The notes beneath the pieces are model-generated. The model searched no databases. It was not told where the DNA came from and worked only from the letters and a program-made list of their open reading frames with translations. From Escherichia coli (GTDB lineage Bacteria > Pseudomonadota > Gammaproteobacteria > Enterobacterales > Enterobacteriaceae): 64,000 nucleotides of DNA. A program made the position numbers and the translations under genes. The stretch lies in the NCBI RefSeq assembly GCF_003334815.1, contig NZ_QOWO01000012.1; one strand, written 5' to 3'. Positions 2,952 to 62,961 of this stretch are shown here, piece by piece (the stretch's first letter is position 1; every line of letters starts with the position of its first letter).

Positions 2952-3191
2952 TGTAAAGCATCCACAATAGAAGAAGGATGCCGCAGGTTTCATCAATATT
3001 ACGCGATGATGAGAACCAGATGCGACGTTGGCCGGCAGGTCTTCGGGCTTGGAGGGGTATCTAAGATACTAAGAGATGATGACTTCCCACCGAATGGCAG
3101 TGTCCGCATAACGCAATCATCGCACCTTTCCTTACCGCTGCGCGTCAGCTCCAGATTCGCACTGGATTCCCTATTAACTCACAGGACCGGC
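2952..3191 (-). ncRNA. Adenosylcobalamin riboswitch (btuB 5' leader)
   Basis: About 240-nt leader upstream of btuB on the minus strand matching the recalled btuB leader (GCCGGTCCTGTGAGTTAATAGGGAATCCAGTGCGAATCTGGAGCTGACGCG...); element continues into the first btuB codons. Confidence 0.85.
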
Positions 3192-3319
3192 AAGTGGATG
3201 CTACAGGTTGTAACAAGTTACTGTCCAGACGTAGCTCACAAATAGGAATTCATCAAGATCTGGACATCTGATGAGCAATCCCTACAATCGCCGCGTACTT
3301 TAATTTTTCAGGATACATC

Positions 3320-5799: not shown

Positions 5800-7200
5800 A
5801 TGCCACATTCCTACGATTACGATGCCATAGTAATAGGTTCCGGCCCCGGCGGCGAAGGCGCTGCAATGGGCCTGGTTAAGCAAGGTGCGCGCGTCGCAGT
5901 TATCGAGCGTTATCAAAATGTTGGCGGCGGTTGCACCCACTGGGGCACCATCCCGTCGAAAGCTCTCCGTCACGCCGTCAGCCGCATTATAGAATTCAAT
6001 CAAAACCCACTTTACAGCGACCATTCCCGACTGCTCCGCTCTTCTTTTGCCGATATCCTTAACCATGCCGATAACGTGATTAATCAACAAACGCGCATGC
6101 GTCAGGGATTTTACGAACGTAATCACTGTGAAATATTGCAGGGAAACGCTCGCTTTGTTGACGAGCATACGTTGGCGCTGGATTGCCCGGACGGCAGCGT
6201 TGAAACACTAACCGCTGAAAAATTTGTTATTGCCTGCGGCTCTCGTCCATATCATCCAACAGATGTTGATTTCACCCATCCACGCATTTACGACAGCGAC
6301 TCAATTCTCAGCATGCACCACGAACCGCGCCATGTACTTATCTATGGTGCTGGAGTGATCGGCTGTGAATATGCGTCGATCTTCCGCGGTATGGATGTAA
6401 AAGTGGATCTGATCAACACCCGCGATCGCCTGCTGGCATTTCTCGATCAAGAGATGTCAGATTCTCTCTCCTATCACTTCTGGAACAGTGGCGTAGTGAT
6501 TCGTCACAACGAAGAGTACGAGAAGATCGAAGGCTGTGACGATGGTGTGATCATGCATCTGAAGTCGGGTAAAAAACTGAAAGCTGACTGCCTGCTCTAT
6601 GCCAACGGTCGCACCGGTAATACCGATTCGCTGGCGTTACAGAACATTGGGCTAGAAACTGACAGCCGCGGACAGCTGAAGGTCAACAGCATGTATCAGA
6701 CCGCACAGCCACACGTTTACGCGGTGGGCGACGTGATTGGTTATCCGAGCCTGGCGTCGGCGGCCTATGACCAGGGGCGCATTGCCGCGCAGGCGCTGGT
6801 AAAAGGCGAAGCCACCGCACATCTGATTGAAGATATCCCTACCGGTATTTACACCATCCCGGAAATCAGCTCTGTGGGCAAAACCGAACAGCAGCTGACC
6901 GCAATGAAAGTGCCATATGAAGTGGGCCGCGCCCAGTTTAAACATCTGGCACGCGCACAAATCGTCGGCATGAACGTGGGCACGCTGAAAATTTTGTTCC
7001 ATCGGGAAACAAAAGAGATTCTGGGTATTCACTGCTTTGGCGAGCGCGCTGCCGAAATTATTCATATCGGTCAGGCGATTATGGAACAGAAAGGTGGCGG
7101 CAACACTATTGAGTACTTCGTCAACACCACCTTTAACTACCCGACGATGGCGGAAGCCTATCGGGTAGCTGCGTTAAACGGTTTAAACCGCCTGTTTTAA
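5800..7200 (+). CDS. sthA: Soluble pyridine nucleotide transhydrogenase
   Basis: 466-aa ORF; FAD-binding GSGPGG motif and flavoprotein disulfide reductase family architecture. Confidence 0.95.
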
Positions 7201-8100
7201 AACTTTATCGAAATGGCCATCCATTCTTGCGCGGATGGCCTCTGCCAGCTGCTCATAGCGGCTGCGCAGCGGTGAGCCAGGACGATAAACCAGGCCAATA
7301 GTGCGGCGTGGTTCCGGCTTAATGCACGGCAGATAAACAACCCCATCGCGTTTGCGCTCCGGCGGCACAGCCAGCGCTGGCAGTAAAGTGATCCCGCTAC
7401 CTGCCGCCACCATGTTGCGCAGAGTTTCCAGGCTGGTCGCGCGGAAGTGTGTATCTTCATCCGCCCCGGCTTCAAAACAGAAACCCATTGCCTGATCGCG
7501 CAAACAGTGACCATCTTCCAGCATCAGCAGTTTTTCCCCTGCCAGATCGGCCATCGGTACGCATTCGCGGTTCGCCCACGGGTGATCTTCATAGATAGCC
7601 AGCAACATTGGCTCATCAAACAACGGCACTTCAATGAATGCTTCGCTCTCTTTCACCAGCGCGAGGATCACGCAATCGAGTTTGCCGCTGTCCAGTTGCG
7701 CCAGTAACTGGTGGGTCTGTGCTTCATGCAGATACATTTCCAGCTTTGGAAAGGTCTGGTGCAGCATAGGGATAATATGCGGTAGCAGGTACGGTCCAAC
7801 TGTGGGAATCAAACCAATGTGCAGCGGTCCGGACATCGTCTCGCCCTGCTGGCTTGCCATCTCTTTAAGGACTTTCACCTCACGCAGCACGGTACGCGCC
7901 TGATCCACCAGCAGCATTCCCGCCTGGGTGAACAACACTTTACGGCTGGTCCGCTCCAGCAACATCACGCCCAGCTCATCTTCCAGCTTACGAATTTGCC
8001 CGCTAAGCGTCGGCTGGCTAACGTGGCAGGAATCTGCCGCACGCCGAAAATGGCGGTGTTCAGCCAATGCCACCAGGTACTCAAGATCACGAATATTCAT
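7183..8100 (-). CDS. oxyR: LysR-family hydrogen peroxide-sensing regulator
   Basis: ORF 7183..8130; start trimmed to [18 protein letters not shown]; contains redox cysteines in the [12 protein letters not shown] region; 3' end overlaps sthA convergently. Confidence 0.95.
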
Positions 8101-8119
8101 TATCCATCCTCCATCGCCA

Positions 8120-8170
8120 CGATAGTTCATGGCGATAGGTAGAATAGCAATGAACGATTATCCCTATCAA
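8120..8170. promoter_or_regulatory. OxyR binding region (oxyR/oxyS divergent promoters)
   Basis: Repeated ATAG elements (8122, 8135, 8144) and CTAT (8165), spaced as in OxyR operators, between oxyR start and oxyS. Confidence 0.6.
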
Positions 8171-8195
8171 GCATTCTGACTGATAATTGCTCACA

Positions 8196-8304
8196 GAAAC
8201 GGAGCGGCACCTCTTTTAACCCTTGAAGTCACTGCCCGTTTCGAGAGTTTCTCAACTCGAATAACTAAAGCCAACGTGAACTTTTGCGGATCTCCAGGAT
8301 CCGC
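8196..8304 (+). ncRNA. oxyS: OxyS small regulatory RNA
   Basis: Sequence GAAACGGAGCGGCACCTCTTTTAACCCTTGAAGTCACTGCCCGTTTCGAGAGTTTCTCAACTCGAATAACTAAAGCCAACGTGAACTTTTGCGGATCTCCAGGATCCGC matches recalled OxyS; divergent from oxyR; ends in a hairpin plus T8. Confidence 0.9.
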
Positions 8305-8312
8305 TTTTTTTT
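8286..8312 (+). terminator. Intrinsic terminator of oxyS
   Basis: Stem GCGGATC/GATCCGC followed by TTTTTTTT. Confidence 0.8.
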
Positions 8313-8315
8313 GCC

Positions 8316-8343
8316 ATAAAAAAGCCCGGCGATAAGCCAGGCT
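8316..8343 (-). terminator. Intrinsic terminator of argH (argCBH operon)
   Basis: Minus strand reads GCCTGGCTTATCGCCGGGC then TTTTTTAT, 24 nt past the argH stop. Confidence 0.7.
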
Positions 8344-8366
8344 CAAATTTATACATATAAATGTTC

Positions 8367-9740
8367 TTACCCTAACCGAGCCTGCGCAAAAGCAATCGCC
8401 TGCGCCACCTGCTGCGGTGAGACGCCGCCTTTTGCCGCACGCTTGTCGAGGCACGATTGCAGCGACAGAATCGGATAGACATCTTCGTCAATCACCTGAC
8501 TGAATTTCTGCAACTCACTGAGCGGCAGATCTTCCAGCGGTTTGCCCTGACGAATGGCTTCCACCACCGCTTCACCAACAATATGGTGCGCCTCGCGGAA
8601 CGGTACGCCTTTCGCCACCAGATAATCCGCCAGTTCGGTGGCGTTGGCGTAACCCTGCTGAGCCGCTTCCTGGCAACGTGGACGTTTCACCTGAATGCCG
8701 TCCAGCACCAGCGCCGCCATATGCAGGCAGTCCAGCCAGGTATCGAGCGCGTCGAACAGACCTTCTTTGTCTTCCTGCATATCTTTGTTGTAAGCCAGCG
8801 GCAAACCTTTCAGCGTCATCATCATGCCGGTTAACGCCCCCTGCACCCGGCCGCATTTACCGCGAATCAGCTCCAGCGCATCCGGGTTTTTCTTCTGCGG
8901 CATTAATGATGAACCGGAAGTCACGCGGTCAGAAAGCTCCACAAACCCCGCTTCGCCGGTGTTAAAGAAAATCAGATCTTCAGCAAAACGCGACAGATGC
9001 ACCATGCCGATAGCGGCAGCAGAAAGCAGTTCCAACACATGGTCACGGTCAGAAACGCTGTCGAGACTGTTACGGGTCGCCGAAGCAAAGCCCAGCCAGC
9101 CTGCTAACTGTTCACGGTCGATTTCATAGGCCGTTCCCGCCAGCGCGCCACAGCCTAGCGGGCTGACATCCAGACGCTTAAGCGCATCCTGCAAACGGCT
9201 TTCATCACGCGCCAGCATCTCAACATAGGCCAGGCACCAGTGCGCGAACGTCACCGGCTGGGCGCGTTGCAGGTGAGTGTAACCTGGCATTACCGCGTCC
9301 TGATTGTTTTGTGCGGTTTCCACCAGCGCCGATTGCAGCTGCCGGTTAGCCGTCAGTAACTCGCTAACGGTATCTTTGCACCACAGTTTCAGGTCAGTCG
9401 CTACCTGATCATTACGGCTACGCCCGGTATGCAGCTTTTTGCCTAACTGGCCCACTTTGTCGATCAGTTTGCCTTCCACCCAGCTATGGATATCTTCGGC
9501 GTCGCTTTCAAGGATTTGTTGTGGCCTGGCGCGAACATCTTCCAGCAACACGTTCAGCGCCTCTTCCAGTTGCGCCTGCTCTTCTGCGGTTAACACGCCT
9601 ACCGTGACCAGGGCTTTGGACCAGGCCACAGAGCCAACAATATCCTGCTCCGCCAGACGGTAATCAAAGCGCAGTGAGTCGTTGAATTGTTTGAACCGTT
9701 GATCTGCTGCCTGGGTAAAACGCCCGCCCCAAAGTGCCAT
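8367..9740 (-). CDS. argH: Argininosuccinate lyase
   Basis: 457-aa ORF; fumarate-lyase signature [12 protein letters not shown]. Confidence 0.97.
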
Positions 9741-9800
9741 AACTCTGTTTCCTTATTTTGAAATTCAATGCCGGAAAGCTGCGCCTCCGGCCAACAAAAC

Positions 9801-10577
9801 TTAAGCTAAAATCCGCGTACCCATCGGCATACCGTTAAACAGTGCCGGAAGCTGCTCCGCATGACGCCAGGAGGCGATATCTACCGGACGGCCCAGCGTG
9901 CGGGCCGCATCCAGCGCCGCGTTCACTTTCACTATCATGCCGTCAGTAATAATGCCCTGCTCAATCAGTTGTTCTGCTTTCGCGGCGGTCATTTCGGCAA
10001 TGCGTTGCCCTTTGCCGTCGAGAATGCCGCTGACGTCGGAGAGCAAAATCAGATCCGCGCCCAGCGTTGCCGCCAGCGCCGTTGCCGCCTGGTCGGCATT
10101 GACGTTCATCAGTTGCCCTTCGTCTGTTACGCCAATGGAGCTGACCACCGGCAGATAACCGTTCTCCAGCAAGGAGTTGATAAGCTTAGGCGAACCTGGC
10201 TGCGCCAGTCCAACATGACCTAACTCTTCATCAAGCTGGGTCACTTTGACGCTGTCGCCGTCACCGAGAAACAAACCTACGGCCGCAATCTGATGTTTCT
10301 TCGCCCATGCCAACAGGGTTTTATTTGCCGTTCCCGCCAGTGCTCCGGTGATAATGTCTATCTGATCAGCAGGCGTCACCCGCAGGCCGTTTTTCTTTTT
10401 CACCGGCAGATTCAGCCCTTTCATCAGCTCATCCACCACGCAACCGCCGCCGTGCACAATCACCAGCGGACGCTGATGTGACTCACGATAATTCACCAGT
10501 GCGCTAAACAGACGTTCCAGCGCCTCTTCACTATCCAGCAGTACGCCGCCCAGTTTGATAATTAATGGATTCATCAT
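9801..10577 (-). CDS. argB: Acetylglutamate kinase
   Basis: ORF 9801..10610; start trimmed to [11 protein letters not shown]; amino-acid kinase fold. Confidence 0.95.
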
Positions 10578-57798: not shown

Positions 57799-57897
57799 GC
57801 CGGATGCGGCGCGAACGCCTTATCCGGCCTACAAAAGTTTGCAAATTCAATAAATTGCAGAATTCATGTAGGCCTGATAAGCGAAGCGCATCAGGCA
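57799..57897. repeat. BIME (inverted REP pair)
   Basis: GCCGGATGCGGCGCGAACGCCTTATCCGGCCTACA ... GTAGGCCTGATAAGCGAAGCGCATCAGGCA. Confidence 0.85.
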
Positions 57898-62865: not shown

Positions 62866-62880
62866 ACTTCGCATTTGCAG

Positions 62881-62961
62881 GCAGGATAAGGCGTTTACGC
62901 CGCATCCGGCATTTGAGCAGGATGCCTGATGCGACGCTGATAGCGTCTTATCAGGCCTACA
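62881..62961. repeat. BIME (inverted REP pair)
   Basis: GCAGGATAAGGCGTTTACGCCGCATCCGGCA ... GCCTGATGCGACGCTGATAGCGTCTTATCAGGCCTACA. Confidence 0.85.

Follow-up and report, generated by a model that had tools for sequence, protein, structure and literature searches.

The standard 3' module of an Hfq-binding small RNA is a stem-loop followed by a U-tail, a module that the OxyS terminator also forms. For OxyS, OxyR-dependent induction by peroxide and binding to Hfq have been established on the K-12 sequence, identical to the one analysed here (literature cited in PMC8825220). The oxyS gene lies divergent from oxyR in the oxyR-argH intergenic region of E. coli and Salmonella (PMC8825220). According to Jose et al. 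2022 (PMC8825220) it goes back, terminator included, to the 3' portion of a peroxidase gene that once lay beside oxyR, and the region that follows it towards argH varies between families. In that work oxyS with its terminator is treated as one of the small RNA genes derived from mRNA 3' ends; a hairpin on the argH side, and its conserved contact with the OxyS terminator, are not discussed there and are observations of the present analysis.

A transcriptional terminator after argH was drawn as a prediction in a 2006 paper on argCBH, in which an expressed lacZ fusion was obtained between the argH stop codon and the predicted terminator (PMC1413537). The 3' end was mapped in 2018, when SMRT-Cappable-seq in M9 medium recorded a transcript from 4154882 to 4158272 (forward) with full cover of b3958, b3959 and b3960, i.e. 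argC, argB and argH (Yan et al. 2018, PMC6131387, Supplementary Data 1). OxyS and its terminator are textbook material, and the feature as a whole is already known and ordinary.

With canonical intrinsic terminators, both elements at this locus share a GC-rich stem of 7–9 bp, a short loop, a U-tract of 6–8 and a mapped 3' end within it; set against that class, only their closeness is notable, with 5 nt between the two U-tract templates and a spacing that is conserved across genera. The overlapping bidirectional terminators of SEnd-seq do not resemble intrinsic terminators and give overlapping 3' ends (Ju et al. 2019, as summarised in bioRxiv 10.1101/2022.10.23.513370). The likeness to this class lies in the convergent units, whose polymerases would here meet within a few base pairs; the difference is that here there are two separate canonical terminators with non-overlapping ends.

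The window, i.e. the whole stretch of DNA that was analysed, is 64,000 nucleotides of an Escherichia coli contig (NZ_QOWO01000012.1). Positions 7090..9890 are base-for-base those of E. coli K-12 MG1655 (NC_000913.3 4156700-4159500, reverse complement, 2801 nt), so published K-12 coordinates can be transferred exactly. The OxyS locus is identical to that of the type member (RF00035; K-12 b4458). The features of the region are as follows.

7183..8100, minus strand: oxyR coding sequence, 305 aa (RefSeq annotation of 100%-identical genomes)
8101..8195, no strand: oxyR/oxyS divergent control region, 95 nt (sequence)
8196..8312, plus strand: OxyS small RNA gene, 117 nt in the K-12 annotation, b4458 (RF00035 and K-12 ncRNA 4158278..4158394)
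8286..8304, plus strand: OxyS terminator hairpin (hairpin 1), 8 bp with a 3-nt loop (fold and conservation)
8305..8312, plus strand: T8 tract, the U-tail of OxyS (sequence; mapped 3' ends at 8310 and 8311)
8313..8317, no strand: linker GCCAT, 5 nt, separating the two U-tract templates (sequence)
8318..8323, minus strand: U6 tract of the argCBH terminator, A6 on the plus strand (sequence; mapped 3' end at 8318)
8324..8344, minus strand: argCBH terminator hairpin (hairpin 2; fold, covariation, single copy in the window)
8345..8366, minus strand: argH 3' UTR, short and AT-rich, between stop codon and terminator (sequence; differs between genera)
8367..9740, minus strand: argH, argininosuccinate lyase, 457 aa, last gene of argCBH (ORF list and RefSeq annotation of identical genomes)

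The region can be taken with high confidence as the 3' boundary of two convergent units, OxyS (OxyR-activated, plus strand) and argCBH (minus strand), each with its own terminator; termination in vivo would be Rho-independent on both sides. A polymerase on oxyS would make the 8-bp GC-rich hairpin at 8286..8304 and release within U8, and a polymerase leaving argH would make a hairpin of 7–9 bp at 8344..8322 and release within U6 at 8318. The second hairpin stands between argCBH transcription and both oxyS, which that transcription would otherwise cross antisense, and oxyR, which lies downstream in the sense direction.

The oxyR gene is oriented away from oxyS, as argH is. In the ORF list it spans 7183..8130, with an in-frame ATG upstream. 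A -10-like GATAAT can be read at 8182..8187, with the OxyS 5' end 8 nt further on, and a sequence scan gave minus-strand promoter-like hexamers at 8186..8141. A mechanical ORF at 8191..8454 (minus strand, 87 aa, GTG start), antisense to oxyS and extending across the two terminators, was not accepted as a gene, being an out-of-frame overlap of argH, unannotated in the genomes inspected, in a region that the RNA elements explain. On the other side of oxyR, sthA (plus strand, 5800..7200) and oxyR (minus strand, 7183..8100) converge with an 18-nt overlap. The Term-seq 3' end of sthA (K-12 4159345, window 7245) lies within the oxyR coding sequence, so this other boundary of oxyR is an overlapping one, unlike that of oxyS and argH. 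Elsewhere in the window, Rfam matches above the gathering score were a cobalamin riboswitch (btuB leader) at 3017..3206 (minus strand), an L31 ribosomal-protein leader, a ClpQY promoter element, naRNA4 (REP-derived RNA) and two ES036; the coordinates of the last five are, as listed, 39461..39513 (-), 44125..44182 (+), 62880..62957 (+), 57834..57875 (+) and 38440..38481 (-).

OxyS matched RF00035 in cmscan at 8196..8305 on the plus strand with 139.5 bits against a gathering score of 75 (E = 4.6e-29), over model positions 1-110 of 110; the start at 8196 given in a preliminary description of this DNA is exact. The gene lies divergent from oxyR within the oxyR-argH intergenic region, in an order that is the same in the 60 species loci described below. 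Its minimum-energy fold (8196..8312) has three stem-loops, the last of which (8286..8304) reads GCGGAUCU-CCA-GGAUCCGC and is followed by U8. The terminator stem, GCGGATCT/GGATCCGC, had 8 pairs in the terminator scan, 5 of them G-C, and is followed by T8 at 8305..8312; sequence and scan agree to the base with the hairpin and T8 run earlier placed at 8286..8312. The fold has -12.4 kcal/mol (z = -4.4), and none of 200 shuffles was as good. Entries in supplementary file 1 of Adams et al. 2021 (PMC7815308) include primary Term-seq 3' ends of OxyS at K-12 4158279 and 4158280, minus strand, in two conditions; by coordinate transfer they fall on the 7th and 6th T of T8 (window 8311 and 8310, respectively). 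The OxyS side thus has a GC-rich hairpin, a U-tract of at least 6 and an RNA 3' end in that U-tract. An Rfam search of 8050..8450 at permissive E-values for other RNA families left OxyS as the sole significant match. Six minus-strand matches at 8315..8416 (E = 0.28-0.92, far under gathering scores) were set aside as generic matches to terminator ends.

The argCBH terminator has the core GCCUGGC/GCCGGGC at 8342..8324 on the minus strand, followed by U6 at 8323..8318. On the plus strand the hairpin is GCCCGGC-GATAA-GCCAGGC (8324..8342), preceded by A6 at 8318..8323; read as minus-strand RNA it is GAGCCUGGC-UUAUC-GCCGGGCUU, then UUUUAUGGC. In the core 7-bp stem 8342..8336 pairs with 8330..8324 around a loop at 8335..8331, and two extra weak pairs (8344/8343 with 8322/8323) extend it to 8322..8344, giving the 9 pairs, 6 of them G-C, that were counted in the scan. 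A minus-strand terminator had been proposed for argH at 8316..8343, which is right within 1 nt. The terminator starts 22 nt beyond the argH stop codon; its fold has -16.0 kcal/mol (z = -4.5), a value equalled by 1 of 200 shuffles. The SMRT-Cappable-seq 3' end at K-12 4158272 is window 8318, the last U of U6, so that here too a GC-rich hairpin, a minus-strand U-tract of at least 6 and an RNA 3' end within it are found. No argH 3' end is among the Term-seq table entries listed for Adams 2021 (PMC7815308), and none was found in the TERMITe supplements.

The same data set records how well this terminator works. The row for argCBH gives 548 reads at the start site and 36 ending at the termination site; a further 26 end within 50 bp downstream and 18 further on, with a median read-through of 216 nt (PMC6131387). 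Ca. 22% of the full-length argCBH reads therefore extend more than 50 nt beyond the terminator, and the median read-through reaches ca. window 8102, across oxyS in antisense to the start of oxyR. In this one data set and one condition the argH terminator is real yet leaky – it attenuates rather than seals.

Between the two elements, the gap after T8, which ends at 8312, is 5 nt to the pure A6 at 8318, or 3 nt to the run ATAAAAAA at 8316; an earlier figure of about 4 bp is a fair one, the value being 3–5 bp according to how the A-run is delimited. The mapped 3' ends of OxyS (8310/8311) and argCBH (8318) are 6–7 nt apart and do not overlap, and the two RNAs therefore have no complementary sequence in common. 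Each hairpin is unidirectional, because neither has a T-run on its other side. The proposal of two opposing intrinsic terminators is thus borne out, with a hairpin and a U-tract for each and with folds and published 3' ends in agreement. The description of the pair as a compact convergent boundary holds for the distance between the ends; it does not hold for tightness in the argH-to-oxyS direction, given the reads that pass the site or end shortly beyond it. That leak is recorded from argH towards oxyS only and in one condition, and the reading of the region as a boundary is still supported. An 11-nt inverted repeat, GCTTTTTTTTG / CATAAAAAAGC (8303-8313 / 8315-8325, 91% complementary), bridges both terminators, where read-through RNA from either strand could fold into a third hairpin, rich in A-U pairs; the repeat is the automatic outcome of a T-run facing an A-run, and no function is attached to it.

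A loose scan found 7 terminator-like sequences in 4.5 kb, near the shuffle expectation of 5.0. A strict scan of the whole 64-kb window found 2 strong sites on the plus strand and 6 on the minus strand; it missed the argH terminator, whose maximal stem extension took two of the U's, and was used only as a background rate. Strong sites being so few in 64 kb, two opposed ones within 20 nt of each other are unexpected by chance. Because the loose scan is near chance, the case rests on the fold z-scores, the conservation across species with covariation, and the published 3' ends.

Conservation was assessed in 60 loci of Enterobacteriaceae, one per species, retrieved by an exact 21-nt core of OxyS. 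OxyS is flanked by oxyR, and in nearly all of the loci by argH too. The OxyS terminator hairpin is kept in all 60, in 22 distinct sequences. In 39 loci, from more than 12 genera, the unit is intact – hairpin 1, T7-11, GC(A/G)T, A5-8, hairpin 2 – among them loci of Citrobacter, Salmonella, Klebsiella, Raoultella, Enterobacter, Kosakonia, Pluralibacter, Lelliottia and others. In three (two of Franconibacter and C. koseri) the unit is kept with a longer or interrupted linker. In six loci of Enterobacter, Lelliottia and Leclercia the distal arm of hairpin 2 is replaced by an inserted repeat with its own minus-strand hairpin and U-run (GGCAAC-UUCG-GUUGCC-AUUUUGCUUUU). The second hairpin is absent in seven loci (three of Trabulsiella, Silvania confinis, two of Pseudocitrobacter, and E. 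albertii, where a degenerate remnant is left), and in five (three of Escherichia, two of Citrobacter) a gene islet stands directly after the T-run.

The linker is GCAT or GCGT in most other genera, and across genera hairpin 2 stays 4–6 nt from the OxyS T-run. The sequence from hairpin 2 to the argH stop codon is unconserved and ranges from ca. 20 to ca. 200 nt, with REP-type and other palindromic repeats filling it. Because this argH-side spacer is so variable, it is to the OxyS terminator, rather than to argH, that hairpin 2 stays attached. In two Citrobacter loci (L016, L049) it is still beside OxyS though the neighbour is a different minus-strand gene, not argH.

Several of the loci have features of their own. 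In the six with an inserted repeat (L012, L031, L032, L033, L059 and L061, from Enterobacter, Lelliottia, Leclercia and relatives), hairpin 2 is interrupted by a short repeat, AAAGCAAAATGGCAAC-CGAA-GTTGCCATTTT, that adds a hairpin of its own, flanked on either side by U-runs, and more copies of a palindromic repeat, CTCCCTCTCCC...GGGAGAGGG...GGGGTGAGGG, fill the space towards argH. In Trabulsiella (L018, L043, L057) an argH terminator is lacking, and 9 nt separate the argH stop codon from the OxyS T-run; the sole hairpin ahead of argH is the OxyS terminator read in reverse, and in that direction it has no U-tract.

Covariation of the second stem was measured on 32 distinct hairpin-2 sequences. 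In the MAFFT alignment of the whole unit the distal arm of hairpin 2 was out of register, and pairs were therefore counted from trimmed hairpins re-aligned in register, over the 7-pair stem. Standard pairs made up 99.1% of 217 cells, a percentage inflated by the selection of sequences with a folding dG of -8 kcal/mol or better. In the control in which the partner was slid by 1–3 columns, pairing fell to 23-61%. Both sides had changed in 4 of the 7 pairs, in 14 cells, and the covariation score was 0.337 against a shuffle mean of 0.218, with none of 500 shuffles as high. There were 25 cells with a G·U pair on the minus-strand RNA (an A·C mismatch on the plus strand) and 2 of the reverse kind. 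Mean stability was -12.4 kcal/mol as minus-strand RNA vs -10.0 as plus-strand RNA, the minus strand being the better in 23 of the 32. The double changes and the strand asymmetry are unaffected by the fold-based choice of sequences. The G·U asymmetry, with which the minus-strand stability agrees, shows that hairpin 2 has been selected as RNA transcribed from the argH side.

The joint between the two terminators also differs within E. coli. The OxyS side was matched in all 5426 complete E. coli genomes, and the K-12-type pair is present in 3553 of them (65.5%). For 1869 (34.4%) the match ends exactly at the last T of T8, and an islet of ca. 3 kb stands directly after it in place of hairpin 2 (16214..19314 in locus L004). 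The islet encodes an MFS transporter and a D-mannonate dehydratase, ManD, both on the minus strand, and also holds an AT-rich upstream region (30.5% GC) and REP elements before argH. No copy of hairpin 2 was found elsewhere in the islet haplotype, where the only matches had 5 mismatches; argH is followed by a different hairpin that has no U-run, then by REP. The MFS gene faces OxyS with a hairpin that has no U-tract, and no canonical terminator faces OxyS. The same manD-MFS islet is found in three other Escherichia species (L045, L046, L050). Because the K-12-type hairpin is also seen in other genera, the islet has probably replaced an ancestral paired arrangement.

Another insert was seen in C. 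braakii and C. amalonaticus (L021, L052), where a plus-strand gene stands at the joint, after T8-GCG, and has both a promoter region and, facing argH, a terminator of its own. Its product is a secreted protein of 727-815 aa in which a ricin-lectin domain occurs together with GH18 and CBM5/12; the lectin domain was the only one named by NCBIfam, the other two coming from Pfam. Insertions at this joint are recurrent. In total, a canonical minus-strand terminator facing OxyS is missing in 12 of the 60 species and in 34% of the E. coli genomes, so the argH-side terminator is dispensable.

A single bidirectional terminator of the SEnd-seq class – a shared stem-loop with overlapping ends, at which head-on collisions of polymerases drive termination – would account for the convergent gene pair, for the third inverted repeat that T8 and A6 make over the joint, and for the 26 argCBH reads that end within 50 bp past the mapped site, around the reverse of the OxyS hairpin. 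It is nevertheless disfavoured, and very improbable: no stem-loop is used both ways, the hairpins being distinct and having a U-tract on just one flank each; the mapped ends are separated by the gap given above; the central repeat follows automatically from its two runs; and the class, as summarised, is unlike intrinsic terminators, yet both elements here are canonical. Still less credible, to the point of being negligible, is the idea that the second hairpin was left behind by a mobile repeat (REP/BIME-type or similar) and plays no part in termination. Repeat elements do fill the same intergenic space in other species, but the hairpin is present in a single copy in the 64-kb window even when 3 mismatches are allowed, a minus-strand U-run is always next after it, its stem shows the covariation and the strand-specific G·U pairs of an RNA, and its U-tract holds a mapped RNA 3' end.

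What the second hairpin is kept for is a separate matter. In the reading of two opposed terminators, the argH-side one would keep argCBH transcription from crossing oxyS in antisense and from entering oxyR in sense, and this insulation of oxyS and oxyR is a plausible selective reason for hairpin 2 to stay beside OxyS. It is possible, though on balance doubtful, that the hairpin is kept mainly as an insulator of oxyS and oxyR and only secondarily as the argH terminator, stopping any transcription from that side and so preventing antisense transcription of oxyS, collisions of polymerases at the oxyS terminator and read-in to oxyR. Its constant distance from the OxyS T-run, set beside a highly variable spacer on the argH side, would fit such a role, as would the two Citrobacter loci in which it is kept next to OxyS with a non-argH neighbour, the position of oxyR downstream in the same orientation, and a median read-through that reaches the oxyR start. 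However, this is a refinement that does not exclude the main explanation; nearness to OxyS may just mean that insertions are tolerated on the argH side, inside the 3' UTR; and the hairpin is absent from 34% of E. coli genomes and several genera with no compensation seen. A further reading, speculative and rather unlikely, is that the pair is a conserved two-part insulator module of the oxyS-oxyR unit, whose loss would let neighbouring metabolic operons transcribe antisense to oxyS and into oxyR, with the joint as a preferred landing site for small islets.

Beyond annotation, the boundary of OxyS and argCBH matters little. The additions made here are modest: the conserved spacing of 4–6 nt, the selection of hairpin 2 on the minus strand, its documented leakiness, and the islet polymorphism at the joint. 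If the two-part module did exist, the islet-bearing E. coli (34%), Trabulsiella and others would couple sugar-acid or arginine metabolism to the peroxide response. The 3553 complete E. coli genomes with the pair and the 1869 with the islet are a natural with/without comparison, which could test the effect of convergent read-through on a small RNA gene.
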